From IMG/VR virus record IMGVR_UViG_3300050343_000270, positions 50,402 through 114,401 of that record: DNA of 64,000 nucleotides. The stretch is one strand, 5' to 3'. The notes under the pieces were generated by a model. That model saw nothing but the letters and a program-made list of their open reading frames with translations. It did not search any database and was not told where the DNA came from. Shown here piece after piece: positions 2,714-43,509 of the stretch. The number at the start of each line of letters is the position of its first letter. Positions within the stretch are counted from its first letter, which is position 1. This DNA is from a virus. The position numbers and the translations under genes are program-made.

Positions 2714-2746
2714 TTGGGTGTAAGTTTTAAAAACATTTATCTACTT

Positions 2747-3919
2747 ATGTCATCAAGAACTCGCGTAATTTCACAAAACAAGTCCGTCTATGTATCTGAT
2801 ACTGGATGGTATATAGATGCCGACGAAAACATGATCGAGCCGCATCAGCTACATCGTGTTGATACCTTCTCCTTTGAAGTTGATTTAGCTGGCGCCCGCG
2901 AAGATATTCGCGAATTTGGTCAACTTGCTAGAATCGGCACTTTAACAATGAGGGAAATCAACCCAACAGTGTCATTTGGCTATTACCTCGGTAACGGCGA
3001 AAATGAACTTGCAATAGGACTAACTTCTTCAGAAGATTTCAATGCACAAATGATCAGTGGTATTTTAACTGAAGATGTTGCTAGTCGCGAGAAGAACATT
3101 TACACCGTTATTGTTAAAGAAGGCGAAGACGCTTTCAACTCATCTGCTTATCAATCGCAAAGCGAAAACCATGATGTTATTGGTTTCGGAAACTCTGTCT
3201 TAACAAGTTACAGCAGTAACTTCGCTGTTGGAGAAATCCCTAGGGTAGATGTTGAGTGGGAAGCCTCAAATGTGATTTTCTACACAGGTGGTCACTCTGG
3301 CTTCAAGAACCCATCAATTGATAAAGAGGGCGCTCGTGCTGATGAAGGTGTTTTCAATCTTCCTGCACCAAGCACTGGAAACATGAACGTTTTAGTTCTT
3401 CGTCCCGACGACATCACTGTTAGCTTTGCTAATGACGACATTACCGCTGGAAATCTCGGTGGAACAAACTTTAGTGACATGTGTATCCAAAGCTGTTCTG
3501 TTGAAGTTCCATTAAGTCGTGGTAATATTGAATGTCTTGGCGAAGAAAGAGCGGTTGCAAAACCACTTGAGTTCCCAATCGATGTTACTGTCAGCATTAA
3601 CGCTATTGTCAAAAACTTCAAAGAAGGCGCTCTTGAGTATGTTCTCACAGGAACTGCTGGAGACAATAACACCGACATCAGTGTTGATATTAAGAATGAC
3701 GCTCTCGATGGAGTTCACAAGTTCACCCTTAAGAATGCTGTTCTCGACAACCAAAGCTTTAGCCAAGGTCTAGACGACAACGAAACTGTTGACTTGACTT
3801 TCTCTGCTCAAATTGGTGGAGCTAGCACAACCACAGATGGATTATTCTGGAGTGGTGCGGGAACTTACACTTCAGCAGTCCCAACCAGCGGTGACGCGGT
3901 AGCGGCTCAACCAATCTAA
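2747..3919 (+). CDS. Major tail tube protein
   Basis: ATG 2747 (MSSRTRVISQ); acidic and beta-rich with tube-like motifs (REDIREFGQL, SRGNIECLGE); preceded by GTGTAA and followed by a strong terminator. Confidence 0.7.
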   Translation: MSSRTRVISQNKSVYVSDTGWYIDADENMIEPHQLHRVDTFSFEVDLAGAREDIREFGQLARIGTLTMREINPTVSFGYYLGNGENELAIGLTSSEDFNAQMISGILTEDVASREKNIYTVIVKEGEDAFNSSAYQSQSENHDVIGFGNSVLTSYSSNFAVGEIPRVDVEWEASNVIFYTGGHSGFKNPSIDKEGARADEGVFNLPAPSTGNMNVLVLRPDDITVSFANDDITAGNLGGTNFSDMCIQSCSVEVPLSRGNIECLGEERAVAKPLEFPIDVTVSINAIVKNFKEGALEYVLTGTAGDNNTDISVDIKNDALDGVHKFTLKNAVLDNQSFSQGLDDNETVDLTFSAQIGGASTTTDGLFWSGAGTYTSAVPTSGDAVAAQPI

Positions 3920-3991: not shown

Positions 3992-4930
3992 ATGCCAGTG
4001 TTTCGTATAGATTCAAGTGACAAACAGGTTTTCATCAACAATACTAGGTTGATGGGCGTTCAGGCTTGTAATATAGAGACGGATAAGGATTTCGAAACTA
4101 TACGATCAATTGGAGATATCAATGTCACTGATAGGATTTTAAAATCAAATCAAACGACAAATCTATCGATTGACTTCATGCTTTGCGATACTAATCAAAA
4201 CGACCCATTTTTTGATTTTCAAACAAGCGGGATTCTTTCTGTTGAAGATTTCAATTACAACATTAAAGACTCTGTTCAGGAAACTGTCATTACTGGCGCA
4301 TACATGACCTCCTACAGCATTGAGGGTGCTGTTGGTGAGTTGGTCAAGGGAAGCGTGGCTTACGAGTGTGATGGCTTTGATTTCAATAATACAGGCATAT
4401 TAAGCGGAAACTATCAAAGTAGCGATTCTTACAGTGTGTATCAACCGCAGGATATTTCTATTTCCACGGATTTTAATGAAGGTGTGTCTACTTCTGGTTT
4501 GTGCATACAGAACTTTAGCTTAAATTTTGATATTAGTAGGAACGCTATAAACCAAATGGGCAGTCTTACGCCAAAAATGCGATACCCAGAGTTGCCAGCG
4601 GAAGGTGATTTGAGTTTCTCTGTTATTAAGAATAAAGTAACTGGAATTGATTTGTCTTCACTGGTTCTTGATAAAGGCTTGTTGAGTATAACGCTTAATG
4701 AATCCCAATCCAACCAAAGACAATACAATATAAACGACTGCTCTTTAATTTCTATATCAGAAGGGCATTCTTTAGACGACAATGCGACCTTAGATTTTAA
4801 ATATGTATTTAGTGTAAATAAGAGCGATGTATATGACACTGACCATTTTTATAGATCACCTGTTTACAGATCGACTTCTGGATTTACTTATCTACAACCT
4901 GACGGGTCCAGTTTTTATATACAACCTTAA
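3992..4930 (+). CDS. Tail-tube paralogue (baseplate tube-like protein)
   Basis: Collinear similarity to 2747-3919: MTSYSIEGAVGEL vs LTSYSSNFAVGEI; CIQNFSL vs CIQSCSV; SLDDNATLDF vs GLDDNETVDL. Confidence 0.65.
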   Translation: MPVFRIDSSDKQVFINNTRLMGVQACNIETDKDFETIRSIGDINVTDRILKSNQTTNLSIDFMLCDTNQNDPFFDFQTSGILSVEDFNYNIKDSVQETVITGAYMTSYSIEGAVGELVKGSVAYECDGFDFNNTGILSGNYQSSDSYSVYQPQDISISTDFNEGVSTSGLCIQNFSLNFDISRNAINQMGSLTPKMRYPELPAEGDLSFSVIKNKVTGIDLSSLVLDKGLLSITLNESQSNQRQYNINDCSLISISEGHSLDDNATLDFKYVFSVNKSDVYDTDHFYRSPVYRSTSGFTYLQPDGSSFYIQP

Positions 4931-4950: not shown

Positions 4951-6180
4951 ATGCCTGACGTAACTGTAACATCCGATATAGATACTTTTTTAAAGAGTTC
5001 AAATAATTCAACTGCCAGAACAAACCTTGGAGCAGAATCTGCACCCACCTCTATCGCCAACAAAGAAGCCGCCTATGCCCTGACAGGTGTGGCAGTCGGC
5101 ACCGTTTATAAGACCGAGGACACGGGGCAGGTGATGGAGTATCGAGGGGGAGGGGAATCTTTGCCTACCAGTTGGCAATTTAACGTCACTGTAGACGGGG
5201 GCAGTAAAAACGCGAAACTCTCCGACATACCAGCAGGGAACCCAGCAGGTATCGTCAGAATGGTCAGCACAAAGACCAGCAACTTATCCGTCACGGTAAA
5301 ACATGATGGCACGGAGTCGGCTACGGGCATCTGTTACTCAGTGGACGGAGGCGCACCTGTCTATGGAGCCATTGCGGCAGATACCAGCCTTAATCTATCC
5401 ATCCCACACAATGGCGGCGCCCCCACGGAAATTTACATTTGGAGTGCTACCAGTGCCTCTAGCGGCAAGAAAGGGGAGTTGACCTATCTGTCTTGCTCCA
5501 ACATCTCCTTGACCTCACTTGATGTTTCGGGCTTGACGGCATTGACCCTTCTGTATTGCCACAACAACTCCTTGACCTCACTTGATGTTTCGGGTTTGAC
5601 GGCATTGACCACTCTGTATTGCCACGAAAACTCCTTGACCTCACTCGATGTTTCGGGCTTGACGGCATTGACCACTCTGTATTGCTACAACAACTCCTTG
5701 ACCTCACTCGATGTTTCGGGCTTGACGGCATTGACCCTTCTGTATTGCCACAACAACTCCTTGACCTCACTCGATGTTTCGGGCTTGACGGCATTGACCA
5801 CTCTGTATTGCTACAACAACTCCTTGACCTCACTCGATGTTTCGGGTTTGACGGCATTGACCTCTCTGTATTGCAACAACAACTCCTTGACCTCACTCGA
5901 TGTTTCGGGTTTGACGGCATTAACCTATCTGTTTTGCACCAACAACTCCTTGACCTCACTCCTAGCAACGGGCGTTGACCTTAGCTTTGAGTATTATGGA
6001 GTAGTAGGCTCCGACATCGGTGACAACGACCTGACCGAAGCGGCATTGATCGCGTTTGTAGATTCCCTCGCCACAACCGCAACGGGGCTTATCGCATACG
6101 GCGGCAACATAGGTTCCGCAGAGTTTGAAACATGGCTCGCAACGGGCGATGACAAGGGATACATCTGGTTAAATAGTTAA
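4951..6180 (+). CDS. Leucine-rich repeat protein, putative receptor-binding/fibre protein
   Basis: N-terminal ARTNLG fibre-type motif; ~7.5 LRRs LTSLDVSGLTALTxLYCxNNS; located in the tail module. Confidence 0.75.
   Translation: MPDVTVTSDIDTFLKSSNNSTARTNLGAESAPTSIANKEAAYALTGVAVGTVYKTEDTGQVMEYRGGGESLPTSWQFNVTVDGGSKNAKLSDIPAGNPAGIVRMVSTKTSNLSVTVKHDGTESATGICYSVDGGAPVYGAIAADTSLNLSIPHNGGAPTEIYIWSATSASSGKKGELTYLSCSNISLTSLDVSGLTALTLLYCHNNSLTSLDVSGLTALTTLYCHENSLTSLDVSGLTALTTLYCYNNSLTSLDVSGLTALTLLYCHNNSLTSLDVSGLTALTTLYCYNNSLTSLDVSGLTALTSLYCNNNSLTSLDVSGLTALTYLFCTNNSLTSLLATGVDLSFEYYGVVGSDIGDNDLTEAALIAFVDSLATTATGLIAYGGNIGSAEFETWLATGDDKGYIWLNS
5479..5961 (+). repeat. 63-bp tandem repeat (7 full units plus partial flanks) encoding LRRs
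   Basis: TCCTTGACCTCACT recurs at 5506, 5569, 5632, 5695, 5758, 5821, 5884 and 5947. Confidence 0.95.
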
Positions 6181-6181
6181 T

Positions 6182-6688
6182 ATGAAATGCGCTAATTACA
6201 ATAACACAGGTAAGCAGGTCGAACGTGACTTTGCAGCGTCACAGGCTGTAGAGTTTCGGGAGACGGGCAACGTCTTTGAGTTTGGAACCTACCATGGTTT
6301 CACCACTGCTTGCCTTGCCGAAGTTGCCGACCACGTATGGACTCTCGATCTACCTAACGGTGGTGAAGGTCTGCACCTTGAAATCCAACCGAACAAAGAC
6401 CTTGGGCATTTTTACAAGTTCCACAAGTTTGATAACATCACTCAACTCACGGAAGACTCCATGACGTTTGATCCGTCAGTCATTCCTCCATGTGATCTTG
6501 TGGTAGTCGATGCAAACCATGACTACGAACACACCAAGAACGACTGCGACAAAGCACTCTCCATGCTCCGCGCTGGTGGCTGTCTCCTTGTTCATGACGC
6601 ACATTATCCCTCAGTGGCTAAATACCTAGCCCAACACGATCACGAACTCATACCTAACACACGCTATGCAAAAATATTACACAACTAA
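6182..6688 (+). CDS. Class I SAM-dependent methyltransferase (Methyltransf_24-like)
   Basis: VFEFGTYHGFTT motif I; DLVVVDANHDY...LRAGGCLLVHD. Confidence 0.8.
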   Translation: MKCANYNNTGKQVERDFAASQAVEFRETGNVFEFGTYHGFTTACLAEVADHVWTLDLPNGGEGLHLEIQPNKDLGHFYKFHKFDNITQLTEDSMTFDPSVIPPCDLVVVDANHDYEHTKNDCDKALSMLRAGGCLLVHDAHYPSVAKYLAQHDHELIPNTRYAKILHN

Positions 6689-7154
6689 AGAAGACAAGGA
6701 CGGAGATTACGTCACCGTCAATCACACCCGCTACACAGTCACCGAGATTGATCCAGCACGGGTTCACATCCCAGCAGGACGTGAGGCTGACATTGATCTC
6801 TATGACTCTCAAGCGGAGTTTCTAGCCGCCATGGGACTATCGCCAGTTGAGGGTCATGTATTCCCCGAACCAGAACCATTTCCTGCGGTTGCACCAGTTG
6901 TGCCTGACGTAGTGGACATGTGGAAGCTAAAGGCTGTTTTAGACATTGTAGGTAAAACCGCCATGATCGAAACTGTCATCGCTGGCATTCCCGACGAAGA
7001 TACGCGAGTTGCAACACAGGCTGGATGGAAACATGCTTCTACTATTGAGCGTGGGCATTCATTAGTTCAGGCGATGATTGCAATCCCCTCTCTCGATATT
7101 GACGAAGAGGACATGGACGAATACTTTTTGGCAACTAAACAATACGATAAGTAA
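6666..7154 (+). CDS. Putative tail fibre assembly/associated protein
   Basis: VPDVV...W..ASTIERGHSLV...DMDEYFLA pattern typical of small proteins following phage fibres. Confidence 0.5.
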   Translation: MQKYYTTKEDKDGDYVTVNHTRYTVTEIDPARVHIPAGREADIDLYDSQAEFLAAMGLSPVEGHVFPEPEPFPAVAPVVPDVVDMWKLKAVLDIVGKTAMIETVIAGIPDEDTRVATQAGWKHASTIERGHSLVQAMIAIPSLDIDEEDMDEYFLATKQYDK

Positions 7155-7210
7155 TTATTGAGACAAAGAACCGTAAAAAAATAAAAACCATAAGAGCCGC
7201 TTATTTTACA

Positions 7211-7669
7211 ATGATTGTTTACAAAAAAATATCATCCTATACTCAATCTGAGATTGATCTAACATTTTCCTCAAGTAATACAGAGGAGGTTTTTACTGTT
7301 TGCGGCGGATTAGCGGAAACGGGCGTGGGTTCAACGGGTCTTGTGACCACTGGGTTTTGTTTTTCTGGATACGATGGATATCTGTTTGATCAAAGTGGTA
7401 ATTTTTTTGGTGGGTATCAGCCGAATAAACCATTTAGCTTGCAGGTTCACTTAAAGACAGGCAATACACTATCTTATTTTCAAAACGGTCAATTGATTGC
7501 AAACAACCTACATGTAGACGAAAACGTTGAATATATAAAACTAGAAAAAGAAAACATGTCGTCCACCGCGACTGTTTACGGTCAACCTCACGAAAGATTC
7601 ACTCTTCCGTTTTTAATGCTTTCTGGAGGGGCGATTTCATTAAGTGGGGAATTGGTGGCTCAATCTTAA
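7211..7669 (+). CDS. Hypothetical virion protein
   Basis: 152 aa, Gly/Phe-rich beta character; tail module. Confidence 0.4.
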   Translation: MIVYKKISSYTQSEIDLTFSSSNTEEVFTVCGGLAETGVGSTGLVTTGFCFSGYDGYLFDQSGNFFGGYQPNKPFSLQVHLKTGNTLSYFQNGQLIANNLHVDENVEYIKLEKENMSSTATVYGQPHERFTLPFLMLSGGAISLSGELVAQS

Positions 7670-7712
7670 TTTTTTTTGTTTTTTTCCTTTTTTAAATATA
7701 TAATATGTAGAT

Positions 7713-8534
7713 ATGAAAGAACTTTATTCGTTTGAAATTAAAAGAGAAGTTGAGGTCGAAATACCTCATGTAAAAAAAGTAAAAGGTAAAACTGTAGATA
7801 CAACAAAAAAGGTTAAAAAAGACTTACCTTATCGTATCGTTTTCCAAAAACCAAGCAAGGCGGACATAGAAGACGCCGAGTTCTTTTACAGTCAAAAATT
7901 TAACGAGTTCATTAACCTTGGGTTTCTGACTCGCGCAATGCTAAACAAGAAGATGGGTGATAACGGAGGTGTGGCTTCCAAGGAATTTTCTGAAGACTTG
8001 CAACGTTTGCTCAAAGAAAATATGGACGCGAGCAGGATTGTTGAGTTTTATAATTCAGCCAAAGATCTAGACAAAGAACAACAGAAAAAATTAGAGGAAG
8101 CAAAGTCTGTAATCGCAATTACTCAAAAGGAGATTATGGACTATGAAACAGCCATAAGCGAACAATTTAACCATACGGCGGATGTTAAAGCGGAACATAA
8201 GCTTTATGAATTTTTTATCTTTAATTTTTCATTTTTTGAGGAAACCATCAAAGGTGAGAAAAAGTTTTTCCCCATTTTTGAGGGTGAAGGTTATGATGAG
8301 AAGCGTGAATTTTACTTGTATATTTCAGAAGATGCTGAAGACATCGATGAGGACACACTTAAGAACAAGGATATTTTTGAAGAATCTTTTGATAAGCTAG
8401 TTAAAGTAATTAACGTGTGGTATAGGGGTCTTGGCAAAAACCAGAAAGAAATTGACGAGATATTAAAAACTATTGACGACGCTATTGATATTGAAAAAGA
8501 AGACGATAGCGAAGAAACCGAAAAGGATGAATGA
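7713..8534 (+). CDS. Putative tail assembly chaperone
   Basis: Charged helical protein two genes upstream of the tape measure gene. Confidence 0.5.
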   Translation: MKELYSFEIKREVEVEIPHVKKVKGKTVDTTKKVKKDLPYRIVFQKPSKADIEDAEFFYSQKFNEFINLGFLTRAMLNKKMGDNGGVASKEFSEDLQRLLKENMDASRIVEFYNSAKDLDKEQQKKLEEAKSVIAITQKEIMDYETAISEQFNHTADVKAEHKLYEFFIFNFSFFEETIKGEKKFFPIFEGEGYDEKREFYLYISEDAEDIDEDTLKNKDIFEESFDKLVKVINVWYRGLGKNQKEIDEILKTIDDAIDIEKEDDSEETEKDE

Positions 8535-9400
8535 GCAAAAGCAAAATAAATGCGGCTCAAGTCTTACTTGAAGTTTCTAGAGGGTATAGCATCATTGATG
8601 TTAACGGCGAAGTTTTCTATTTCAAACATCCCAATAATATGGAGTCCTTGCAGAGCGAGGAACAGTATGAAATAATATATAACCGCGCCATTAAGAGGGG
8701 TATTTCTTCTGAGGAGAAACTTCTCAACAATTATATCAAAAGAGGCAAGTGGTCGTTAGAGAAGGAGGAGAAAATAAAGAGTTTGAAATGGATGATTGAT
8801 AAATCCACGACAGCCTCCTTAAAAATAACAGACGACCACCAGAGAAATGTGTTTTCTTCTGGCATCAAAAAACAAGAAGAGGAACTTAGCGAGTTGCAAG
8901 ATAAACGTCATGCGTTGATTGGTCAAAGCGCGGAATCGTGGGCTAGCCAACAGCGAATGTTTAAAATGGTAGAAGACCATGTCTTTTCTGATGCTAAATT
9001 CAAAAAGAATATAACCATTGGTGAAGATGTTTCATTTGTCGTAAATATACAAAAAAAGATATTAGAACTGTCTGAAAAGAGGTCTTTGCTCGCCGCAGTA
9101 TTCCAATCAGAGTTCTTTGATGTTTATTCGATTCAGTATAGAAACCCGATGACTATTTTTGGTGTTGATTTTTTCAATATCACAATATTCCAGAGGTATC
9201 TGTTCTCTTATGCATCTGTTTTGTTAAACAAGCTTAAAAACGTGGAGATGCCAGATGAAATAAGGAATGATCCTGTTAAAATATTTGATTATAACCCAGA
9301 TAATAAAAACAAGGAAACTAAGACTAGTCATGGTATAGATGACATAAAGCAAACTTTAAAAAACAAAGGAAAGCTCACTGCGGAAGACCTCATAAACTGA
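8531..9400 (+). CDS. Putative tail assembly chaperone 2
   Basis: ATGA overlap with the previous gene; immediately upstream of the tape measure gene. Confidence 0.5.
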   Translation: MSKSKINAAQVLLEVSRGYSIIDVNGEVFYFKHPNNMESLQSEEQYEIIYNRAIKRGISSEEKLLNNYIKRGKWSLEKEEKIKSLKWMIDKSTTASLKITDDHQRNVFSSGIKKQEEELSELQDKRHALIGQSAESWASQQRMFKMVEDHVFSDAKFKKNITIGEDVSFVVNIQKKILELSEKRSLLAAVFQSEFFDVYSIQYRNPMTIFGVDFFNITIFQRYLFSYASVLLNKLKNVEMPDEIRNDPVKIFDYNPDNKNKETKTSHGIDDIKQTLKNKGKLTAEDLIN

Positions 9401-9419: not shown

Positions 9420-12400
9420 ATGGCGGCACCAATCAATATACCTGCGAACATTTCGATAAGCACCACTAGCCTGAATAGATCTACTCGTCAGGTTCAGCAA
9501 GCGTTGGGGCGTATTACAGGTCAAGCATCAGAATTTCAAAAATCTCTTGATGCTTCAACTGCGCGTGTGTTTGCTTTCGGAGCTACCACGGCGGTTCTGC
9601 AAGCTGTTAACCAATCATTCAAAAAGCTTATCAGCACCACGGTTGAGGTTGAGAAAAAGCTAATCGAGATAAACTCTATCTTTCAAGCTACAAACGCTCA
9701 GTTTAGCAAGTTTAGAGATTCTATCTTCCAAGTCGCCAAAGATACTGGGCAGTCTTTTAATACCGTTGCAGAAGGTGCGGCGGAATTAGCTCGTCAGGGT
9801 TTAAGTGCAGAAGAGACCGCGAAACGGTTAAAAGCCGCATTAATACTCACTCGTATTTCAGGTATGGACGCAGAGAAGTCTGTAAAGTCTCTGACCGCCG
9901 CAATGAACGGTTTCACCTCTGCTGGATTAAGTGCCGAGCAGATTGTTAATAAAATTGTAGCGGTTGATACGGCATTCGCTGTATCTGCACAAGACTTGGC
10001 TGACGGTTTTTCTCGCGCTGGATCTACGGCAGAGGATGCTGGTGTATCATTTGATCAGCTACTAGGTCTTATAACCGCTGTAGAGCAGAGAACTGCGCGA
10101 GGTGGTGCTGTGATCGGTAACGCATTTAAATCTATATTTACACGACTAGCCCGTGGAACAACCATTGAAAAACTAAAAGAACTTGGTGTTGAGATTGACT
10201 CTAGCCAAACAGGTATTCAAAAACTACAATCTTTATCAGCGGCTCTTGAAAAGATATCAGACCCAACTATAGCAAGTCAGATAAAAGAGCTTGCGGGTGG
10301 CGTGTTCCAGATTAACGTTGTTAGTTCTACATTGAAGGATTTATCAAGCGAGACTTCTATTTTTGCCAGTGCCGCGAAAGAAGCCTCTAATGCAACTAAC
10401 GAGGCTTTTCAAAAGAACGAGCTATTAAATACTAGTTTGGCGGCGCAAATAAATAGTCTGGTGGCTGGGATAACAAATTTAGCAGAAAAAATTGGAGGCA
10501 TAACAATCGCGCCACTGCTTGGTAATTTAGTAAAGATAGCAACAGTGCTTTCAGACTCTTTAGATGGCGCTCTTGACCCAGAAAAAGGTAATGCTTTCAT
10601 CAAGGGTCTTTTAGCCACTATTAGTTCTTTTATATCTGGTCCAGGGTTGATTATGGTGACTGTGGCGTTTTTAAAGATCACCAAGCTGGTGGCTAAATTT
10701 GCCATGGATGGTTTTAAGTCTGTTATGGCAATTGGTTCAGCCCAAGAAAAGAATAAGCAAATTGAGGCTGGTATAGTTAGATTGTTACAACACGACGTTC
10801 AGTTAAGAAAACAGTTAGCTAACCAAAGTTTATCACAGGCTCAAAAAGAACAAGCTGTTCTGGATGCTATAAAAAGAGAAAATGCCTTACTAAGAGATCA
10901 AGAGAGGCTAATGCGAAATCTTACATCTCTTGCGAGGCAGAGGGGTGTTACTGGACATAGTTCATCTAGAGGATTTAAGGGAAGGGGTTTTTCGGCAGGT
11001 CACATGCAAGAGGAGGCGAACGCCAGAATGTTGGGCGCTACATCTTCTGTTAGGGCGCACAGGGGGCAGGGAACCATTGGTGGTAAATCATTCATAATGA
11101 ATAACCAAGAAACCGAAATACCAAATTTTGGTCGAAATGGTGATTCTGCGGTCATACCTCATTACGCAAAAGGTTTTGTTCCAAATTTTGCAATGATTAG
11201 CACTAGCGCGTATTTCAACAAAAAAGGCGCAAGTTTACGGGGGTATACAGATGGAATAAAAAATGGGACTATAAGAAGGACCGAGGTTGGAAAAGATCGG
11301 GTGGTGGGTGACGTGAAGTTCAGTAAAGACGAGATTAACGCCGCTGGAAAATTAGGGATAGATGAAAAGGGAAAACAAGCAGATAGCAAAAAGAAACAAA
11401 CTATTGATGCATCAAGAGTCATTGGGAAAAACACAATGCCTACGGTTTTGACCCCTTCAAATTCAGGCGGGACGCGATCAATAACAACGAGAAAAGACTT
11501 TAACCACCCTGTAAAATTTCAATTTAAAAGTTTTAAAGTTGATAAAAATGGAAAGCTTGGTTTGCGAAAGGATTTTGACAGAAAATTTTCTGACACAAAA
11601 ATAAAAGAAATGGCGGAAAATACTGCTTTAAAATTTGCCAAAAAAGCGGCAGAGGCAGTTTCAGAAAAGCCAGTTGATCCAAAAACTATTGAAGAGGTTG
11701 ACAATGTGAACGGATTCATCAGCGGAATAAAAGGAGGTTTTGGTGGAATATTTGATGCGGCTTTAACCACTGCGCTGAGAACAAATGTCGGTGACGGTGT
11801 TGGTGGAGATTTTGACGTTAATACTGCGGACAACGCCAAGGCAAAATCAAACGTAAGAAAAATATTTGGAAGTAGATCACTGCCTCTTAGTGGGCTTGCT
11901 GACTACAAGATAAATGATGGTAATTACACGTTAGAAAGTATGATTACAAAATTCATGGGAACTAAAATTTTAACAGACCCAATCAAAGCAACAATTAACA
12001 AACAGAAGGTAGATAGAAAAGGTTTAAATAGAGTTAGTAAAGGCAGGGGAAGGGCTGGAGGATTTATACCCAACTATAGCCAAACAGACCGAGGAGTTCC
12101 TATGTCTAAAATTCGCGCCCACTTTGATGGCGCAGGAAACCCTGTTGCTGTTACAAATACAATGGACGAACCTAACGGCTTAAGTGACGTAAGGAAGAAT
12201 GGATTGGCTGATGCAATAGGCAGAGAGAGGCAAGGAATTGGAATGCATAGTGAGGGTTTTGTTCCTAATTTTAGGCTTGGGGGTCTTGTTAAGCTTGGGG
12301 GAGCGGCTGGAAGGAAGATCGGGGCGGGGGCTTCAAGGTTATTCGGGGGGGCTAAAAATAAAGGTAAAAATGTATTGGACTCCCACAAAGCCTCTAAAGC

Positions 12401-14208
12401 TAACATAAAAAGTCTCAAAGAGAACACCAAAAAGTTAAAGAAAGAAAATCAAGAAATTCAGAAAAGGATAAGCGCTGGCAAATTAAGCAAAGAGCAACTC
12501 AAAATACATGAAAAAAAGCTGAAAAAAAACAATTCTAAAATATCTGACAACGCTAGTCAGATGCAAAATGATAGTGGTGCTGGTATGCTGGCGATGTTTG
12601 CTTTATCTGGGGTAGACACAGGCTTTCAGGCTCTGGCGGACAGCAGGAGAGAGAAGGGGGACGAAAAAGGAGGCATGCTCGCGGATCAGGGATCGGCTGC
12701 CGCACAGTTTGCGTCTATGGGTGCAATGTTTGGACCCATGGGGATGGCGATTGGGGCTGTAACTGGTCAAGTTTATAGTCTTGGATCTGCGCTTCTTGAC
12801 GCTAACAAAAGAATAAATGAAGGCGAAAAAAAGGGGGAAAAGACCTAGATAGGGGTAAAGAGGCTCAAGCTAAAGGCATTCAGAGACAAAGAAGTGCCAT
12901 GAGGAATCTTGGCTTCAGTAAAGGCAACGAAGTAATGGAAGTCGCTCAAAAAGTTGCAAGTGTGGGTCTGCGCGACTACACAGATGAAATAAAAAAAGTA
13001 AAGGATCGTTTGCGTTCAGCCTCTGAGAGTCCTGCGGAATACAAAAAAGCAACCGATGACTATATTAAAGTTATGGAAAAGGTAGCTATAGCCGAGACAA
13101 AGGTTGCCGAAATAAAAAGAATACAAGCAAGTCTGACAAAAAAACAAAATGATTTAATTAAACTAAATGCAGAACAAGCTCAAGCAAGCCAAGCAAGAGT
13201 AAAATCCGCACAAAAGGCTGTTGATACATTAGGGTTTATGAGTGAAATCAGAACACCTGAATTAACTGGCGAGAGAAGAAATGCGGTTGATAGATCTTTG
13301 AAGGGTCAGTCGGCTGTTGCTGGAGCGCAATTAAATAAACAAACATTAAATGACTTAAAAGTAGAGTTAAGTCAAACAACAGATAAAGATAAAAGAGAAG
13401 AAATAGTAGAGAAAATCGAACAAGCCACGACAGTCTTCAACAAATCGGTTGTTTCTGCGGCAATAAGTCTAAGGAACAATTTAAACCAAGCTGAATTTGA
13501 TCTTGGAAAGCTGAAAGAGACTCTAACTACACAAAAAGAGCAAACATTCGACAGTAGGCTTGGCTTTGTAATTCTTTAAAAGACAAAACAATAGACGCCG
13601 ATGTTGTTAGAGATAACGTAAAAAGGCTTAGGGAAGCTGGGGACGACCCTAAAAAACAATTAGAGGCGATGGAACGACTGGCTGGCAACAAAGAACAACT
13701 TGACGCGATTAACCCAGCAATCTTCAAAGGTATTTTAGACTCTATGGGTCTGACACCCAAAGAGCAAGAAGAATTAACTAGGAAAACAGACGAGGCAGGT
13801 TTGAGGGGTGCTGGGATCACTGATCAGAAAACTATTGATGCAATAATAGAGAGACTAAAAAAGGATAGACCTGACATCAAAAATACACAGCAGGAAATAA
13901 AAGTTCTTGAAGAATCAATAAAAGAGTCTAAAAAGCAAATAGAGAAGTTCGGGAAAGCGTTTAACGCCGAGAAGATTAGCGAAAGCACTAAGAACATATC
14001 CGAAGCCCTAGAAAAATTTGGTAAAGGCATGGGGGACGGCACAAAAATATTAGAAGCAATAAACAAGGTAAATACAAAAGCGGCTACTGAAATAGCCAAA
14101 TCAAATACTCTTGTTAAAGAAGCCGCTAAAGATATAGAGAAAACCAAGAAAGATATAGTTTCTCTCAAGGCGGGGGTAGCACAGGTAAAAGCACAGCTAG
14201 AACCATAA
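9420..14208 (+). CDS. Tape measure protein (one gene, broken by indels near 12830 and 13570)
   Basis: TP901-type TMP segment (FQVAKDTGQSF...AAELARQGLSAEE, RGGAVIGNAFKSIFTRL), three GF(V/I)PN(F/Y) motifs and coiled coils; the -1 frames are open across both breaks, joining ORFs 9420-12848, 12899-13579 and 13669-14208. Confidence 0.85.
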
Positions 14209-14218
14209 TAGAAATATC

Positions 14219-15772
14219 ATGTGTTTAACTACAACAACTGTAACCAATGGATCTCTAAATATCAATTTTGATTATTTAGATGGGGATGAAATGTTTGGGT
14301 ATACTGTGGTTGGTAATTATACTATCGACATCTCCGATATAAGCTTCACAGATCAACAGGGTGTTTTGTTTGAAGGTCGGGACGCTATAAGTTCAGCCTA
14401 TAAGCAGAAAAATATTACCGCTCGCATAGGTGCAGACGAGTATGTAAACGGACGTATAAAAAGTTTAAGTTTTGATGAAAGTGCTTTGGTTGGTTCTCAG
14501 ACAGCGAATGTTGAAATAGAAGAAAGTAAGAGGCTTGATGATTATTCTAACCACACTTTTGCAAAGTATATACCCAACCCTCATCTCCTTGAATCATTTG
14601 AAGAAAGTTTTGACTTTAGTTGTAATGGTAGTGAATACAGTTACAATAGAAATATTTCTATAAAATACAAGCAAAGCACTGAGTCTTCCGACGAGTTTCT
14701 GCATAACTTAAAGGTGTTTGTATCAAACTATTATCATACAGTTCGACCTAATTATGGATTACAGCAAGATGGTATTTCAGAAAACGCCACAATAGATAAG
14801 GGATTTAATGGGATTATCTCTGAAACTATAGACATAATTGGTCTTTCTTACTCAATTCAGGAGAATTTCGCGTCCTCTCGCATACATGAAAATGAAAACG
14901 TCAGCAAAAAATTCACACAAGTAGAAAAACTTGATGAAGCAGGATATCTTGGTAAGACGGTTACTGTTGATATAACTTCTTTACGCCGAGACAATCAGAA
15001 TGTTTTGCGAAGCGCTGTTGCAAGCACTATAGATGATATTTTATCTGAGGAACAATCGGTTTATGGACCTCCTGTATCTATAGCAAGGGGTTTTAAAAGA
15101 AACTCAAAAACTGCGAATCTTGTAATTAATTTCTCAACTGCGCCCAAATATTACAGAGACGCAAGTGTGACGTATAATTGTCAAAAAAGAAAACAAGGTT
15201 CTTTTAATGATTTCTCTATGACGGTTGATTATTGTGCGGTTGGCGTCAACAATAGAGAAAGATTGAATGCTTGCAGAAATTTTTGGTCATCTGATTCTGC
15301 TAATGCCGTGGTCAGGGCTAGTGATTTATTTCCCGAATCTGGGACTTTATATGAAAAAAACAGAAGCACATCTTTCGATTATGGTGCTGGCAAAATTTCA
15401 GAAACAATAACGTTTACCGATGATGATTCTTACAGGTCGGATTTGCCAGATGGTATTTTGAAATACAAGACGACAATAAATAGTCAGAATGGAGTTAAAA
15501 GGTTTACAAGAGTAAACGACCTTGACTCTTTTGCAGAAAAACTAACAATTTCTGATAATAAAACATTAACCAATGTGTCAATAACGGCGGAAGCCGTTGC
15601 CATACCTCAATATGGATTATATCACGCAAGAGACTTCTTGGATTCAAAAACATCCGAATTACAAGGCTTACTTAATTCAAGCGAATTTTATGTAATGTCA
15701 GATCAATATTCTATTGATTTGGCGAATGGCACCGCAAATCGTGTAATAAGTTGTGTAATCCCTACTACATAA
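14219..15772 (+). CDS. Putative baseplate/distal tail protein
   Basis: 517 aa, beta-rich, directly after the TMP. Confidence 0.5.
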   Translation: MCLTTTTVTNGSLNINFDYLDGDEMFGYTVVGNYTIDISDISFTDQQGVLFEGRDAISSAYKQKNITARIGADEYVNGRIKSLSFDESALVGSQTANVEIEESKRLDDYSNHTFAKYIPNPHLLESFEESFDFSCNGSEYSYNRNISIKYKQSTESSDEFLHNLKVFVSNYYHTVRPNYGLQQDGISENATIDKGFNGIISETIDIIGLSYSIQENFASSRIHENENVSKKFTQVEKLDEAGYLGKTVTVDITSLRRDNQNVLRSAVASTIDDILSEEQSVYGPPVSIARGFKRNSKTANLVINFSTAPKYYRDASVTYNCQKRKQGSFNDFSMTVDYCAVGVNNRERLNACRNFWSSDSANAVVRASDLFPESGTLYEKNRSTSFDYGAGKISETITFTDDDSYRSDLPDGILKYKTTINSQNGVKRFTRVNDLDSFAEKLTISDNKTLTNVSITAEAVAIPQYGLYHARDFLDSKTSELQGLLNSSEFYVMSDQYSIDLANGTANRVISCVIPTT

Positions 15773-15778
15773 TTTTAC

Positions 15779-17345
15779 GTGAGTTCAATTCAATATTCTG
15801 GTTATAATTTTCCCGAACCTCTTCCTTTGTTGGCAGAGAGTTCTACGCCGATTCATATCAGTGGTTTATACGACCATAGTTCCGTCGATGTGCAGTTAGT
15901 TGGTTTTTTAACTGGTAGTGATATTAGTAGCTTAAGTTTGCAGAAACAGGAGATGGTGAACGGATTATTGAATGAATATGGTGATTTGGTAATTGATGTT
16001 GGAGGATATACTAAGACTTACGCGAAGGCACTTCCTGTTTCATTAGATTTTCAGGATAGTGATATGACCACGATGGTTCCCTACTCTGCCTCGTTTAAGA
16101 CATTTACTGGAGAGAGTTTTTCTAATTTTTTTGGCGTGTCTTCCCCAAAAAACGAATGGTCGTTTCAGGAGCAAGAAAACCAGATAGTTCAAGCTACTCA
16201 CACAATTTCGGCGCAGGGGAGAAAAAGTTAACGATCAAGACGCTTTGCAGAATGCCATTGATTTCGTTACAGGTCAAACTGGTTTCTATAATGTCGCGCC
16301 AATACTAACTGGGTCAAATGCTTTTTTAAAATCACGAAACGAGAATATAAATAGAAAAACAGCGAATTACTCCATTACTGAGGTTTACCATTTTGATGGA
16401 TCTGATAGACAGGAAACTGAATCTGCAATAGTAACTTATGAAACCACAGTCAATTACAACAAAGATGGCGGCTTGAATGCTGGTATCAATGGTTCGATTT
16501 ACGGCTCATTTGACGGTGAGCAGGTGCATACTGGGTTGTTTACCCCTCAAGACGCTACAAACGCTCTGATCCAAGATGTAGCGGCTTCAATGTCATCCTA
16601 CGACTCTGATGCATTCTCGTTTATTAGAAACCAGCCCAATACCTATTCTTACAATATCAATACTGGAGCTAATACCATAGATTTTTCATTTTCTTACATG
16701 GATCTAGACAATATAGACCAGATAGGTAATATCGGGCATAAATATAAGTCGTCAGTTCAAGCAGATAAAGATAACGCGAACTTTATAGTGTCAGCAGAAG
16801 GGGAGTTGTTTTTTAATGGTATAAGCTCCGTTATTAACACTGGATTATATGAGAACTCAGCAAGATTTCAAGAAATTGATGCCACCTATGACGGTATAGA
16901 TACTTACAATATAGCCTATCAGGGCTGGTTAGATTTTCAACTTGGGAACACAGACTTTACGGTATCAAATATTGATTTAAACAATACTGTAAAAAGCAGT
17001 AGTGTTCAAAAAGATCCTGTTAATAACAAAATAACTTATAGCATACAATTTGACACGTCTATAGATTTAGATGCTGGATTGAATAATGTTGTTTTATCTA
17101 TAACAGATAAACTCCCATTACAGCTTTCTAATGTAGTTCCCACTATTAAAGGATTCGCATCACAGCTTGTTTCTGAAAGAACACTTGGAGAATATTCAAT
17201 ATCTGCCACAGCAGATGAACAAGAAGATCGATTACAGGATCTTAAGAGTCTAGTTTCACGATATATGAAAGGAAGTTATGATCAATCAGATAGCCACTCT
17301 ATTGGTGTAAATAATATAAGCTACAACATTTCAAAATTTTATTAA
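15779..17345 (+). CDS. Putative baseplate protein (one gene; extra base near 16216-16226)
   Basis: Removing one base gives SAQGEKVNDQDALQNAIDF, joining 15779-16231 to 16245-17345. Confidence 0.55.
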
Positions 17346-18709
17346 TGAGCGCGAGTGGATTACATTACATACTTACATCTCAATTTCAAAGCAATGAGAG
17401 GTTGGCGGCTTATTATGATTTTGCCGAATATAATGGAGAGATAAACCCAGAATCAAGCGGCACTTATACGGGGATTCTAAACAACCAATACCCTGCTTAT
17501 GATACGGGCAAGCATACAGCAACAATTGTCAGCGCTACAGGAGCTACAGAGGTTGGTGTGTCGGGCTTGATTACTGGAGCAGTAAGTGGGCGAGGAAGAT
17601 TGGATCAAAGCAATCTAAAGATACCCATTGAGGGATTGGATATTAAAAGCATGTCTTTGTTGGTTGACTTTCAATGGAATGCTGAAGTTGAAAATGGAGT
17701 CATTTTAGGATCTTATGAAAGGTTTGAAGAAACTGTGGGTTCTGTAGATGTAACAGGTTCGCGAGGATTTAACTTTGGCGTAAATGATAGAGGCAATATG
17801 TTTTTCGAGGCTTATCAACCTAGCGGACCATCTATTGTGTCAACCAATTCCATAGAGATGTCCGAAAGAAACATAATTGGTTTGTCTTTTGATCGGGGAA
17901 ATGTTGTTTTTTCAAAATTTGATTTATTCAATGATGTTGTTGATAAGGAAACTTTTAATTTTAATTCTTCAGAAATTGCTCAACCGACAGATTTATATGT
18001 AGGCGGATCACCTCAATATTTTAAGTCTTCAAGTGCGTCTGTGCCAACGGTCAATGCCTCATTGAATGAATTGGCTATTTTCTCTGGCAGTATATCAGCC
18101 CATAACTTAAAGAAATTAACTAGTGGTATTTTGGGTGATTATTTTTACAATACGGGAATACAGACTGTTCAAAATTTTATTACTGGATATACAGACACAG
18201 TAAATTATGCAACAGGTTCTACAGGTACAACACTGCAATCCGCTGGAAATTTGACTGTTTCAACAGGTAGGATTAGCTACACGGGAGTTTTGACTGGTGC
18301 TACGACCGTATCTGGAAGTGAGGGCGACGAAATGTATGTTTTTTATAATTACGATAATGATGGGTTAAAGACATCTTACAAAGAAAAGTTGGGTTATCTT
18401 GATCCATCTAATTCTAACGACTATGCGCCAACTGGAGAATGTGCATTTGATACGCTAGGTCTGCAAGGCGGAAACTATACCTTAACGGGTGATATAGCAT
18501 TGAATCTTGAAACTAAACTATCAACAGGAAGTTATTCGATATACCAACAAGTTGAGCAAACGGGTGTGTTGGGCGTAGTGAGTGGAGTTGATAAGACCGC
18601 TCTTTATGAAAGTGTAACAGGATCAACAGGTCAATACTCAGGTATAGTATTTAATGAATCAATTGAGGCGTTGAAAAGCGACTATATTTACTACAAAGGA
18701 TTAAGATGA
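17345..18709 (+). CDS. Virion protein with LamG/concanavalin-like domain
   Basis: LAAYYDF ... GFNFGVNDRGNMFFE ... LYVGGS ... LNELAIFS pattern; Thr/Gly-rich tail. Confidence 0.5.
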   Translation: MSASGLHYILTSQFQSNERLAAYYDFAEYNGEINPESSGTYTGILNNQYPAYDTGKHTATIVSATGATEVGVSGLITGAVSGRGRLDQSNLKIPIEGLDIKSMSLLVDFQWNAEVENGVILGSYERFEETVGSVDVTGSRGFNFGVNDRGNMFFEAYQPSGPSIVSTNSIEMSERNIIGLSFDRGNVVFSKFDLFNDVVDKETFNFNSSEIAQPTDLYVGGSPQYFKSSSASVPTVNASLNELAIFSGSISAHNLKKLTSGILGDYFYNTGIQTVQNFITGYTDTVNYATGSTGTTLQSAGNLTVSTGRISYTGVLTGATTVSGSEGDEMYVFYNYDNDGLKTSYKEKLGYLDPSNSNDYAPTGECAFDTLGLQGGNYTLTGDIALNLETKLSTGSYSIYQQVEQTGVLGVVSGVDKTALYESVTGSTGQYSGIVFNESIEALKSDYIYYKGLR

Positions 18710-19476
18710 ACTATAATTACATAATGTCAACAGGCTCTGCTAGCTTGTCTGGTAGTAGATACAAGTTAGAGGAGCGTAATAATACAGCTTCTAAATCTCA
18801 ATATTATAATATTGATTACTCTGTTATATCTGGAATTAACATGTCAAGGGTTTCTTTAAATTCGCAAACTCTTTTTCAGGCGCAACCATTTTATTACACT
18901 GGGACAAGTCAAGTATATATAGAAGCACCATCTGGTGATTACTATTTGGATTTCAGCAAGCAAGCTAGTAAAGGAAAAATATTCCTAGATGAAACATTAC
19001 CTGTTAATCGTTCTGGAGTTGTTTTATATGATAAAACTGAGGTCGATACTGGTGTATTGACAATGCATACAGGGGGTAACCCAACGGGGGCGCTTAATGA
19101 TTTAACGGAAGATTTAATTACTCAGGGTTTGTTGGCTGGTGGTTCAACATATAGTGGTGATTTGTTTTCTGGATGGGATGTTTTTTGCAATGGTCAAAAA
19201 TTCCCATCTTATGATGAATTTACTGGGTTAGACCCACAAGTAACTGGAAAATTCTTTGCTTTAAAAAAACCCGAAAATATTTTTGAATATAACAGCGGGG
19301 CGGCTGATTCATTTGGTCAGAAATTCATCCCAAACCAAGTAGACGCTTACATAAATGGTACAGAACAGCCAATGTCTAGCTTCATTTTCACTTATACTGG
19401 TGTAAGTTTAGTTGAAGTTGGCAAGAGCGCAACAGCAGAAATTTATAAAAAAGAAACAACTTCTTACAATTTATGA
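18706..19476 (+). CDS. Hypothetical virion protein
   Basis: ATGA-coupled within the tail operon. Confidence 0.45.
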   Translation: MNYNYIMSTGSASLSGSRYKLEERNNTASKSQYYNIDYSVISGINMSRVSLNSQTLFQAQPFYYTGTSQVYIEAPSGDYYLDFSKQASKGKIFLDETLPVNRSGVVLYDKTEVDTGVLTMHTGGNPTGALNDLTEDLITQGLLAGGSTYSGDLFSGWDVFCNGQKFPSYDEFTGLDPQVTGKFFALKKPENIFEYNSGAADSFGQKFIPNQVDAYINGTEQPMSSFIFTYTGVSLVEVGKSATAEIYKKETTSYNL

Positions 19477-22907: not shown

Positions 22908-23249
22908 TTAGAATGGAATGTCGTCGTCTACATCATCATTTGATGACTCTGGCTGAGATCCAGCGTTGCTTGATGCTTTTAGGCTATCAATCCTCCAAGC
23001 TGACAGACTGACATAATGATTGCCATTATACTCATTGCCTCGCACATTGAAGAATACCTCAACTGACTGACCGTCATTCAAATCATCAAGCTTGCCGCAA
23101 TTGTCTTTAATAAGTTCAAATTTAACATCTTGAGGATACTTGTCGTCATTTGTAGTGATGACAAATTCGCGCTTAGAGAAGCCGCTGTCAAATGTAACAG
23201 TTTCTCCAATTAGTTTGATTTTACCGTCTAGTTTTAGTTCGTTTTTCAT
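22908..23249 (-). CDS. DUF3127-like OB-fold ssDNA-binding protein
   Basis: FSKREFVITT..KYPQDVKFEL...FNVRGNEYNG..YVSLSAWRI with acidic DDDIPF tail. Confidence 0.75.
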   Translation of the reverse strand: MKNELKLDGKIKLIGETVTFDSGFSKREFVITTNDDKYPQDVKFELIKDNCGKLDDLNDGQSVEVFFNVRGNEYNGNHYVSLSAWRIDSLKASSNAGSQPESSNDDVDDDIPF

Positions 23250-26675: not shown

Positions 26676-26711
26676 GATTTACGTGTAATTTGTTAAGTAA
26701 CCTATTGTATC

Positions 26712-28045: not shown

Positions 28046-28046
28046 A

Positions 28047-43435: not shown

Positions 43436-43509
43436 TGAGCATTCAATGATCATTTGCCTTAGATAAAGAAATAGAGATAACCAATAAAAAATTCAGAATT
43501 ACCCAAATA

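Follow-up and report, generated by a model that had tools for sequence, protein, structure and literature searches.

We propose that the product of the open reading frame at positions 4951–6180 of the window, by which we mean the whole 64-kb stretch of viral DNA that was analysed, is probably the end of a phage tail fibre that recognises the host, or a tail-attached adhesin, and that this protein has been diversified by ordinary recombination and selection. The core of the protein is an array of leucine-rich repeats (LRRs), and its gene is made up of the following parts:

4951–6180, plus strand: whole gene, 409 aa, with presumed N-terminal anchor, linker, beta-sandwich, LRR array and C-terminal cap (ORF list, Pfam, AF2)
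4951–5046, plus strand: AT-rich N-terminal segment, residues 1–32, present in one allele group only (allele homology starts at 5047)
5047–5235, plus strand: linker, residues 33–95, conserved in close alleles and modelled with low confidence
5236–5478, plus strand: beta-rich domain, residues 96–176, preceding the LRR array (AF2 strands, family search)
5479–5961, plus strand: LRR array of seven full 63-bp units and a partial eighth, with units starting at 5479, 5542, 5605, 5668, 5731, 5794, 5857 and 5920 (TRF, unit tables, pN/pS split)
5962–6180, plus strand: C-terminal cap domain with two helices (AF2, residues 363–372 and 389–398)
5989–6006, plus strand: short variable patch after the last repeat, residues 347–352 (allele comparison)

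TRF describes the array as a repeat with a period of 63 bp, 7.7 copies, 93% matches and zero indels; the period corresponds to 21 aa, and the array is in frame with the 409-aa ORF. A unit-by-unit listing gives the pattern L-T-x-L-x-C-x-x-N-S-L, in which codons 3, 5, 7 and 8 (and 9) vary. The sequence-only reading had described near-identical units that vary at these x positions, and both TRF and the listing bear this out. Every codon that it named was found again, namely TAT, CTT, ACT and TCT at position 3, TAT, TCT and TTT at position 5, CAC, TAC, AAC, ACC and TCC at position 7, and AAC and GAA at position 8, its sole omission being ATC/AAC at position 9 in unit 1; the unit types that it saw recurring, LLYCHNN and TLYCYNN, do each occur twice. 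Nonsynonymous variation in the window array is found only in codons 3, 5, 7, 8 and 9, the 15 columns of which contain 8 of the 11 polymorphic columns (Fisher p = 2e-4), and the silent changes in the scaffold are TTG/TTA, CTC/CTT and GGC/GGT. Two further ORFs over the array, one on the reverse strand (5459–5968) and one in the +2 frame (5619–5978), were set aside as by-products of the stop-free repeat.

Sequence and predicted structure agree on the kind of repeat involved. The protein matches Pfam LRR_4 at 2.2e-26 (91.7 bits, against a cut-off of 27) and the Listeria protein InlJ (PDB 3bz5), its best match among solved structures, at 1.1e-53 with phmmer, and VIA-align superposes the AF2 model on InlJ with a Z of 24.2 and an rmsd of 2.8 Å over 241 residues at 37% identity. 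The model reaches a pLDDT of about 90 or more over residues 100–409 and of 90–98 over residues 177–340, where each unit contributes one short strand at positions 3–5 or 3–7; residues 1–96 are of low confidence (below 50 for residues 1–41 and 44–96). A cysteine codon, TGC, occupies position 6 in 44 of the 44 units pooled from this and related arrays, replacing the core leucine and forming a cysteine ladder. InlJ likewise has 21-residue units, a cysteine at the sixth position and an LDVS segment. Judged by repeat period (20–29 residues being usual for LRRs, with an LxxLxLxxNxL consensus), cysteine ladder and solenoid, the array belongs to the InlJ-type 21-residue LRR class, with the reservation that its parallel beta-sheet solenoid is that of a predicted model rather than a solved structure.

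The segments around the array are more distinctive. Homology to alleles L008, L009 and L015, which have different N-termini, begins at 5047, and residues 1–32 are presumably a virion-attachment anchor. The N-terminal 95 residues match no family, and no second copy of the anchor was found within the 64-kb window. In the beta-rich domain, strands over residues 102–166 are modelled at a pLDDT of 83–96, and the domain matches only 32 representative clusters among 1.84 billion proteins; LRRs follow it in all 13 family members examined. A search for it among longer proteins returned nothing, which is weak evidence, and its fold was not found in fold searches, the lists of which were filled by LRR matches.

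To see how the gene varies in nature, we may turn to 15 distinct alleles from marine metagenomes (W denoting that of the window), all of them short-read assemblies, so that the unit counts of individual arrays may be wrong and singletons may be chimeric. In IMG/VR itself only two close relatives were found. Across this set the arrays range from 2 to at least 8 units, and unit order and x residues differ while the flanks are identical or nearly so. Alleles W, L007 and L008, for example, show 0 differences in the 432 nt upstream of the array and no synonymous change in the C-terminal domain, yet their arrays differ in unit number, order and x residues. Changes in the C-terminal domain between close alleles are mostly or wholly nonsynonymous, and of six alleles compared, five have them clustered at domain codons 11–16. 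Codons 44 and 46 are altered as well in L008 and L015, and a further 9–11 synonymous changes are found in L009. Four assemblies share one 7-unit array, differing at no more than 3 of 891 nt, and two further arrays were recovered three times each. At the level of the assembled sequences, the differences among alleles represent real population variation. The prediction that homologues would vary in repeat number and x residues on a conserved scaffold with conserved flanks was thus confirmed, and the array is far from invariant across the population.

The distribution of substitutions within units points in the same direction. Among the 44 pooled units, amino acids are exchanged at positions 3, 5, 7 and 8 and, in rare cases, at 9, 16 and 19, and nearly all scaffold changes are silent. 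The x codons have a pN of 0.37 and a pS of 0.03 (0.33 and 0 in the window array alone), and the scaffold shows the reverse, with a pN of 0.011 and a pS of 0.18 (0.008 and 0.07 in the window array alone). Those of the checks suggested by the sequence-only reading that were applied all gave results in its favour. The ratio of x-site pN to scaffold pS ranges from two-fold (pooled) to 4.6-fold (window alone). Repeat shuffling, also anticipated there, is visible in units that carry linked silent markers and recur at different places in different arrays: a YSSN unit with a distinctive silent haplotype occupies different positions in L007, L010 and L016, and in L009 units of two scaffold haplotypes alternate, the L017 type being one of the two. 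Scaffold identity is 0.90–0.98 within an array and 0.75–0.83 when the W group is compared with the L017 and L018 lineages, a difference that, on sequence grounds, indicates concerted evolution.

Two explanations would attribute this variation to something other than recombination and selection. That differences in repeat number and order come from short-read mis-assembly is very improbable as a general account, although the window array does contain exact internal repeats of up to 92 nt. The longest of these lies at an offset of 126 nt, so that a short-read assembler could add or drop two units, and the count of eight units in the window, itself a short-read figure, may be off by 2; indeed P0153 is a 6-unit version that lacks exactly units 3–4 of the window array, and contigs L016, L068, L071 and L074 stop within the gene or close to it. 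Against this, each of three different arrays came out identical in three or four assemblies belonging to different projects, arrays hold unit types and x residues absent from one another, which collapse cannot create, and the distant lineages L017, L018, P0046 and P0126 show the same architecture on scaffolds of their own. The other explanation, diversification of the x codons by a dedicated mutator such as a reverse transcriptase (RT) of the diversity-generating retroelement (DGR) kind acting on AAY template codons, seems to us just as hard to credit. It would account for the fact that most x codons are NNT or NNC, with a fixed third base derivable from AAT or AAC, and for the near lack of synonymous variation in them, and the searches for machinery covered 64 kb of a 114-kb contig. 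However, no RVT_1 match was obtained among window ORFs of 190 aa or more or in the two related viral records G001 and G002, and blastn-short of the array against the 64-kb window returned only chance matches of 11–19 nt outside the array, with no template repeat. The only YxDD motif in the window lies within a glycosyltransferase and was discounted. The pattern of change is also wrong for such a mechanism: the Asn-9 codon AAC is unchanged in 42 of the 44 units, no change is seen at the scaffold adenines in ACC, GAT and ACG, and both GAA (at position 8 in 8 of the 44 units) and AGC (at position 3) require changes other than at adenine and cannot be reached from AAY. Moreover, the same array turns up unchanged in independent assemblies, x residues go together with silent markers in the scaffold, and an x-site pN just 2 to 5 times the scaffold pS can be explained by selection. 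These results agree with the doubt about a DGR expressed in the sequence-only reading. Nor did the 64-kb window contain a spare LRR unit or donor cassette elsewhere, the scanned ORFs another LRR Pfam match, or the Pfam scans any deaminase family. With no RT, template repeat or spare cassette in the window, ordinary repeat recombination and diversifying selection suffice, and machinery of the DGR or lamprey variable lymphocyte receptor (VLR) type is unsupported.

The case for a role in the tail rests on the neighbourhood of the gene and of its homologues, for which four further features matter:

2714–3919, plus strand: T5 pb6-like major tail tube protein (AF2 model and Foldseek)
6182–6688, plus strand: SAM-dependent methyltransferase (Methyltransf_24), second cassette gene (Pfam, 4.1e-15)
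6666–7154, plus strand: 162-aa ORF, third cassette gene (co-occurrence with the fibre gene)
9420–12848, plus strand: tail tape measure protein (16 PHROG tape-measure families, best 2e-41)

The LRR gene lies in the tail block between the tail tube gene, whose model matches the tail tubes of T5, DT57C and P74-26 in Foldseek (E 1e-8 to 1e-6), and the tape measure gene, all on the same strand. In another phage, the 749-aa protein P0121 (L001:3500-5749) ends in the LRR module (residues 92–409 of the window protein), joined at residue 92 and without the linker; its residues 271–503 match tail-fibre PHROGs at 2.6e-43, and its gene is the third ORF after a tape measure gene (1.8e-44). Together, this fused homologue downstream of a tape measure gene and the place of the window gene between tail tube and tape measure support, indirectly and from sequence, the reading as a tail adhesin. 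In the window the gene stands upstream of the tape measure gene, which is not the usual distal-tail position. LRR solenoids are monomeric and fibre shafts are trimeric, a mismatch that makes the geometry at the proposed fibre tip hard to picture and weighs somewhat against the tail-fibre reading.

Homology to other loci, at both the nucleotide and the protein level, is confined to a segment from about 4895/5047/5224 through 6905/7170, and GC content is 0.49–0.53 within this segment and 0.33–0.42 outside it, rising at about 5000. The methyltransferase shows 100% amino acid identity in L009, L011, L012 and L014 despite unrelated flanking genes, and the 162-aa ORF accompanies the fibre gene wherever a locus is long enough to show it. 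Sequence comparison thereby shows the three genes moving as a GC-rich cassette between unrelated phage backbones. The 162-aa ORF has no Pfam or NCBIfam match, and Atlas leads below 0.9 (XkdW, Caudo_TAP_N, DUF4376) raise the possibility that it is a fibre assembly or accessory protein. PHROG, Pfam and NCBIfam returned nothing for the ORFs at 260–2713, 3992–4930, 7211–9400 and 12899–21983, and a scan for promoters and terminators found nothing above chance level. Megablast of 20 kb against cultured phages gave no match, and tblastn of the fibre protein against phages gave generic LRR matches only. As for the host, polymerase relatives, all below 35% identity, offer no clue. Host assignment from cellular genomes was rejected as too generic, only the LRR part having been matched, mostly in Bacteroidota.

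These surroundings also lend themselves to two other views of what the protein does. It could be an accessory adhesin that decorates the tail and attaches weakly and reversibly to host capsule, to particles or to surfaces of other kinds, while DNA ejection is triggered by a receptor-binding protein encoded downstream of the tape measure gene. The adjacency to the tail tube gene upstream of the tape measure gene would suit such a role, large unannotated ORFs at 14219–21983 after the tape measure could encode the distal tail and receptor-binding protein, and the cassette, being found inserted in unrelated backbones, is to that extent dispensable. We nevertheless consider this unlikely: in L001 the module is a fibre tip at the canonical post-tape-measure position, and the strength of diversifying selection and the diversity of alleles fit a specificity determinant. 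The two readings differ only in the adsorption step that is served. Distinctly less probable is a non-virion protein, carried together with the methyltransferase as a moron and acting as an effector, intracellular or secreted, that might, for instance, bind a host defence protein or modify the host surface. LRRs of this class do occur in the bacterial effectors and adhesins SspH1, SlrP, IpaH and InlJ, and the cassette is GC-rich, mobile and includes an enzyme, but a homologue is fused to a tail-fibre shaft, the gene sits within a same-strand tail block with no regulatory signal of its own above chance, and swapping of N-terminal modules, which is seen among these alleles, is typical of fibres.

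Taking the protein as a tail fibre tip or tail-attached adhesin, we envisage that the short, lineage-specific N-terminus anchors it to the virion and that the beta-rich domain is followed by a monomeric solenoid built of InlJ-type cysteine-ladder LRRs. Residues 3, 5, 7 and 8 of each unit would lie on the concave beta-sheet of this solenoid and face a host-surface ligand, perhaps a glycan or a protein. The x residues are 28% Y, 24% N, 14% T, 10% S and 7% H, and a Tyr/Asn/Thr/Ser/His palette is typical of binding sites. Specificity would then be set by the x residues of each unit and by the number of units. Diversity would arise in the phage population by ordinary means. About 45 nt of near-invariant scaffold DNA per unit could offer an in-register substrate for unequal crossing-over or replication slippage, which would add, delete and reorder units, and recombination between the alleles of co-infecting phages may swap single units or blocks of units. 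Point mutations in x codons would be retained by diversifying selection and scaffold changes purged, and the whole module of beta domain, array and cap would be spliced in frame behind varied N-terminal anchors or fibre shafts. It is tempting to speculate further that the array is an evolved, recombination-driven generator of diversity, with its scaffold kept identical even at silent sites as a recombination substrate, although we regard this as rather doubtful. Blocks of 18 nt bearing the four specificity codons, spaced by about 45 nt of scaffold, would then be shuffled, duplicated and deleted within and between co-infecting genomes by phage recombination, at rates far above point mutation; a RecA/UvsX-like protein is encoded at 36464–37603. 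If true, the phage population would have a combinatorial receptor repertoire that is passed on by inheritance, comparable to VLR assembly but in the germline, and virions would bear a natural 'repebody' library.

Variable host recognition in marine phages is not unprecedented, as genes for host recognition have been found to vary between otherwise near-identical genomes, with fibre C-termini in metaviromic islands more variable than N-termini and small fibre-associated genes travelling with them (Mizuno et al., 2014; PMC3909814). In the accessible part of that paper, LRRs are missing from the table of most frequent island genes, and in comparison with the islands as described there the variability of the present array is resolved to four codons per repeat and to repeat number. 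LRRs have been placed at the ends of phage fibres before: the DUF7941 fibre proteins of the chimallivirus Goslar have predicted terminal LRR or beta-helix domains, for which host recognition was proposed (bioRxiv 10.64898/2026.04.21.720040). Goslar differs in being a jumbo myovirus with another anchor domain, and the accessible part of the preprint reports no repeat-level hypervariability or copy-number polymorphism.

Bacterial surface proteins provide closer structural parallels. Known members of the InlJ type are surface adhesins, such as the P. gingivalis InlJ adhesin (PMC5915736). InlJ, however, is a bacterial cell-wall-anchored protein with divergent repeats, whereas the phage units have near-identical DNA, stand between a beta domain and a cap that are specific to phages, and are encoded in a tail block. 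An LRR locus of Flavobacterium psychrophilum resembles the phage array in its near-identical units and in its few hypervariable positions on one face, its proteins having 2–14 units each and showing signs of recombination (Altae-Tran et al., 2020; PMC10392669), and the LRR subtype of the phage array is also common in Bacteroidota. That system consists of up to 19 tandem paralogous bacterial genes with a signal peptide and a T9SS domain (PMC10392669), whereas the window has a single LRR gene in which Pfam finds no Por_Secre_tail, the domain (PF18962) carried by cellular LRR homologues; diversity in F. psychrophilum lies between paralogues, and here between phage genomes.

Lamprey and hagfish VLRs, to which the sequence-only reading had likened the array, share with it the LRR solenoid, variable concave-face residues and a variable number of modules, and VLR structures are among the fold matches of the phage LRR model. 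VLR genes are put together in somatic cells, from donor cassettes on either side and by means of a cytidine deaminase. The likeness holds for protein architecture but not for the manner of assembly: the phage alleles are inherited and stable, with no donor cassettes in the 64-kb window and no sign of somatic or cassette-donor assembly. The Mtd protein of Bordetella phage BPP-1, a DGR target, is similar in lying at a tail-fibre tip and varying in a few ligand-contact NNY codons. DGRs need an RT and a template repeat, make changes at no sites but those templated by adenine, and act on proteins with C-type-lectin or Ig folds; no RT, template repeat or adenine-only pattern was found for the phage array.

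Phage host range is set by receptor-binding proteins, which are known to vary by the exchange of whole domains, by scattered point mutations or through DGRs; to our knowledge, the LRR scaffold has not yet been characterised as a phage receptor binder. The present array would add a fourth, modular route, in which LRR units are interchangeable and both the unit count and four residues in each unit vary, the remainder being frozen. Such a tail-fibre tip might also be made programmable in laboratory phages, given how readily LRR binders can be engineered. The 15 alleles, with their identical or near-identical flanks, make up a data set for linking repeat composition to host specificity in uncultured marine phages. 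Repeat number and four surface residues varying on an otherwise fixed protein are, as far as the sequences indicate, what would be expected of a host-recognition module caught in an arms race, and such LRR arrays may therefore serve as a marker for phage-host arms races in ocean metagenomes.

Within the putative fibre gene (4951-6180, plus strand, 409 aa), a 63-bp unit is tandemly repeated in frame at 5479-5961, with 7.7 copies, 93% matches and no indels. Each unit encodes 21 residues (L-T-x-L-x-C-x-x-N-S-L-T-S-L-D-V-S-G-L-T-A), and the ORF matches the leucine-rich repeat (LRR) family Pfam LRR_4 at 2.2e-26. Across the eight units of the window, amino-acid differences occur only at unit positions 3, 5, 7 and 8 (the x positions) and, in unit 1 alone, at position 9, and the remaining scaffold carries silent polymorphisms only, three in number (TTG/TTA, CTC/CTT and GGC/GGT). 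Eight of the 11 polymorphic columns fall within the 15 columns of codons 3, 5, 7, 8 and 9 (Fisher p = 2e-4). The variant codons and recurring unit types listed in the sequence-only reading were all correct on a unit-by-unit check. Two long ORFs here, 5459-5968 (minus strand) and 5619-5978 (+2 frame), are not genes and are by-products of a repeat free of stop codons. All arrays, from the window and its relatives, derive from short-read assemblies, and the window array holds an exact repeat of 92 nt at an offset of two units; the true number of units may thus be six, the number found in the homologous protein P0153, rather than eight.

Protein and contig searches found many close relatives of the fibre gene in marine metagenomes. 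Among sequences with flanking domains at least 93% identical, there are 15 different arrays, of 2, 4, 6, 7, 8 or at least 8 units. The comparison of homologues proposed in the sequence-only reading thus came out in its favor: repeat number and x residues vary, and the flanks are almost frozen. Between the window allele and loci L007 and L008, the 432 nt preceding the array show 0 differences, and the 219-nt C-domain shows 0 synonymous and 3-7 nonsynonymous differences, mostly within residues 347-352, directly after the last repeat. This short second variable patch (window 5989-6006; EYYGVV, AMYGAL, TLYGVV, EYYGAY and others), where changes between close alleles are nearly all nonsynonymous, probably extends the binding face. 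In 44 pooled units, scaffold residues are invariant except for V16A (four units) and L19F (two units). Position 3 holds T/L/Y/S/N, position 5 Y/S/F/D/N, position 7 Y/H/S/N/T/G and position 8 N/E/V, with Tyr, Asn, Thr, Ser or His making up 83% of x residues. Contigs L068, L071 and L074 end at fibre residue 73-75 and L016 begins within the array; breaks where the modules join, and inside the repeat, are as expected for heterogeneous populations.

Nei-Gojobori counts over all pairs of pooled units gave pN 0.37 and pS 0.03 for the x codons, and pN 0.011 and pS 0.18 for the 17 scaffold codons. Because x-site pN exceeds scaffold silent divergence (about 2-fold in the pooled units, 4.6-fold in the window alone), the pattern is, at the level of sequence, the classical signature of diversifying selection at x sites atop strong purifying selection.

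An AlphaFold2 model of the fibre protein, built on 25 homologues, is poor for residues 1-96 and confident from residue 100 to the C-terminus, where block means of pLDDT span 83-98 and most reach about 90 or above. It comprises:

Residues ~100-170: beta-rich domain
Residues 177-340: LRR solenoid, with one short strand per unit at unit positions 3-5 or 3-7
C-terminal cap: two helices

By established LRR geometry, the side chains of a strand alternate between those buried in the core (L4, C6) and those exposed on the concave side (3, 5 and 7, followed by 8 in the next turn). Given this geometry and the modelled strand positions, the variable residues are predicted to line the concave face of the solenoid. 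Among solved structures, Listeria InlJ, from the class with 21-residue 'cysteine ladder' repeats, comes closest (phmmer 1.1e-53) and is also the top Foldseek match of the model; VIA-align superposes the two with Z 24.2 and rmsd 2.8 A over 241 residues at 37% identity. The NCBIfam internalin_J model matches as well, at a score far under its cut-off.

We infer that the gene product is a putative phage tail fibre with an LRR tip, since several observations converge on this reading. In IMGVR_UViG_3300027077_000008 (locus L001; also L011-L013), the module from residue 92 on forms the C-terminus of a 749-aa protein whose array is the 7-unit array of homologue P0002, whose residues 271-503 match tail-fibre PHROG families (best 2.6e-43), and whose gene lies three small ORFs downstream of a tape measure gene (1.8e-44). 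The N-termini of other alleles are of at least four unrelated kinds, and collagen-like triplets occur in one family member. In the window itself, a tail gene stands on either side of the fibre gene: upstream is 2714-3919, for a double-domain tail tube protein like T5 pb6 (its model matches tail tubes of T5, DT57C and P74-26 with E ~1e-8), and downstream is the tape measure gene at 9420-12848. The beta domain preceding the LRRs is rare (32 representative clusters in a search of 1.84 billion proteins) and is followed by LRRs in 13 of 13 members read; in cellular genomes only the LRR part is present, mostly in Bacteroidota surface proteins. The fibre shaft to which the LRR module is joined in that 749-aa protein (P0121, L001:3500-5749) has four tandem repeats of ~45 residues with the motif NPH-x-VT-x-x-QVGL, and matches many tail-fibre PHROGs.

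The fibre gene also appears to travel with its neighbors. A three-gene block (5047-7170) is 95-100% identical to phage contigs with dissimilar neighboring genes:

4951-6180, plus strand: fibre gene
6182-6688: Methyltransf_24 methyltransferase, its protein 100% identical in four loci
6666-7154: 162-aa ORF, with weak atlas leads to fibre-assembly families

Depending on the locus compared, similarity begins at 4895, 5047 or 5224 and extends to 6905 or 7170, and blastn and tblastn found none in the genes on either side of the block, except for L017, which has the downstream backbone in common. The GC content of the cassette is 0.49-0.53 vs 0.33-0.42 around it, and the window's fibre gene opens with 32 lineage-specific, AT-rich codons, so the cassette looks to have been joined, in frame, to an anchor segment already present.

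More than 450 homologues of the tail tube protein, at 55-99% identity on marine metagenome contigs of up to 150 kb, indicate that the backbone belongs to an abundant group of uncultured marine siphoviruses without a cultured relative. The true start of the tail tube protein is probably not the listed TTG but a site ~11 codons further on. Sugar and glycan genes, an unusually large set for a phage, occupy 23246-29135, 33717-35665 and 49845-58064 (GT9, GT1, GT90, GT2, a Caps_synth-like protein, GDP-mannose 4,6-dehydratase, NAD epimerase and PfkB kinase). The replicative polymerase appears split into pieces across 42120-45700, near DnaB, primase, a RecA-like protein and both ribonucleotide reductase subunits:

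42120-42824: PHP domain ORF
42773-43435: RNase T-like exonuclease
43553-45700: Pol III alpha core

How, then, do the arrays change? P0153 equals the window array minus units 3-4, P0160 equals P0006 minus two middle units, and L016 equals L007 with two other units in place of the first. Unit copying and repeat shuffling, proposed from the sequence alone, are borne out by whole units that carry silent markers to differing places: the YSSN unit, with its distinctive haplotype (CTG, TCG, GTA, GGA, CTA), occupies place 4 in L007, 3 in L010 and 5 in L016. In L009, the common scaffold haplotype alternates with a haplotype characteristic of L017, a more distant locus, and the C-domain starts with 9-10 silent changes of L017 type. 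P0157 and P0159 show point changes at x codons within otherwise equal arrays. Scaffold identity is 0.97 within the window array vs 0.82 to L017 and 0.79 to L018, the latter values being near flank divergence; units of one array being more alike than those of diverged orthologous arrays is a sequence pattern of concerted evolution. If scaffold stretches recombine homologously in register, unit gain and loss, unit movement and concerted evolution would follow, and all observed array changes would be accounted for. The window encodes a RecA-like protein, which may take part in this.

A DGR would instead diversify x codons from adenine-rich AAY templates, which their NNT/NNC form fits. However, such templates could not give rise to AGC or to the GAA seen in 8 of 44 units; the Asn-9 codon, just as rich in adenine, stays the same in 42 of the 44; and adenines at first and second scaffold codon positions never vary in the pooled units. 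Reverse transcriptase families had no match among window ORFs of 190 aa or more, nor was a reverse transcriptase present in two related viral records; the only YxDD motif in the window lies within a glycosyltransferase. The template repeat and spare LRR cassettes that the earlier reading had suggested seeking are likewise absent from the rest of the 64-kb window, and its codon-based doubt about a DGR agrees with all of this. Identical arrays also recur across independent assemblies: the 7-unit array came from four of them, its copies differing at no more than 3 of 891 nt, and two further arrays came from three each. This recurrence argues against a DGR and indicates that alleles are stable, inherited haplotypes rather than per-generation variants. 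Neither a DGR nor a VLR-like mechanism finds support in the 64-kb window, nor does a DGR in the two related records.

Hypervariable concave-face residues and variable unit number are textbook features of the LRRs of lamprey VLRs and plant resistance genes. Surface proteins of Flavobacterium psychrophilum, among other systems, share with the fibre array near-identical LRR units, a hypervariable concave face and variable unit number (PMC10392669). Variable tail-fibre tips of marine phages have been described as metaviromic islands (PMC3909814), and another study predicts LRR domains on fibre-like proteins of phage Goslar (bioRxiv 10.64898/2026.04.21.720040). We found no phage fibre tip consisting of a hypervariable, copy-number-polymorphic LRR array in a literature search of limited coverage, which leaves its absence unproven. 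We therefore rate the fibre array not as a new mechanism, but as a known kind of LRR diversification in a new setting.
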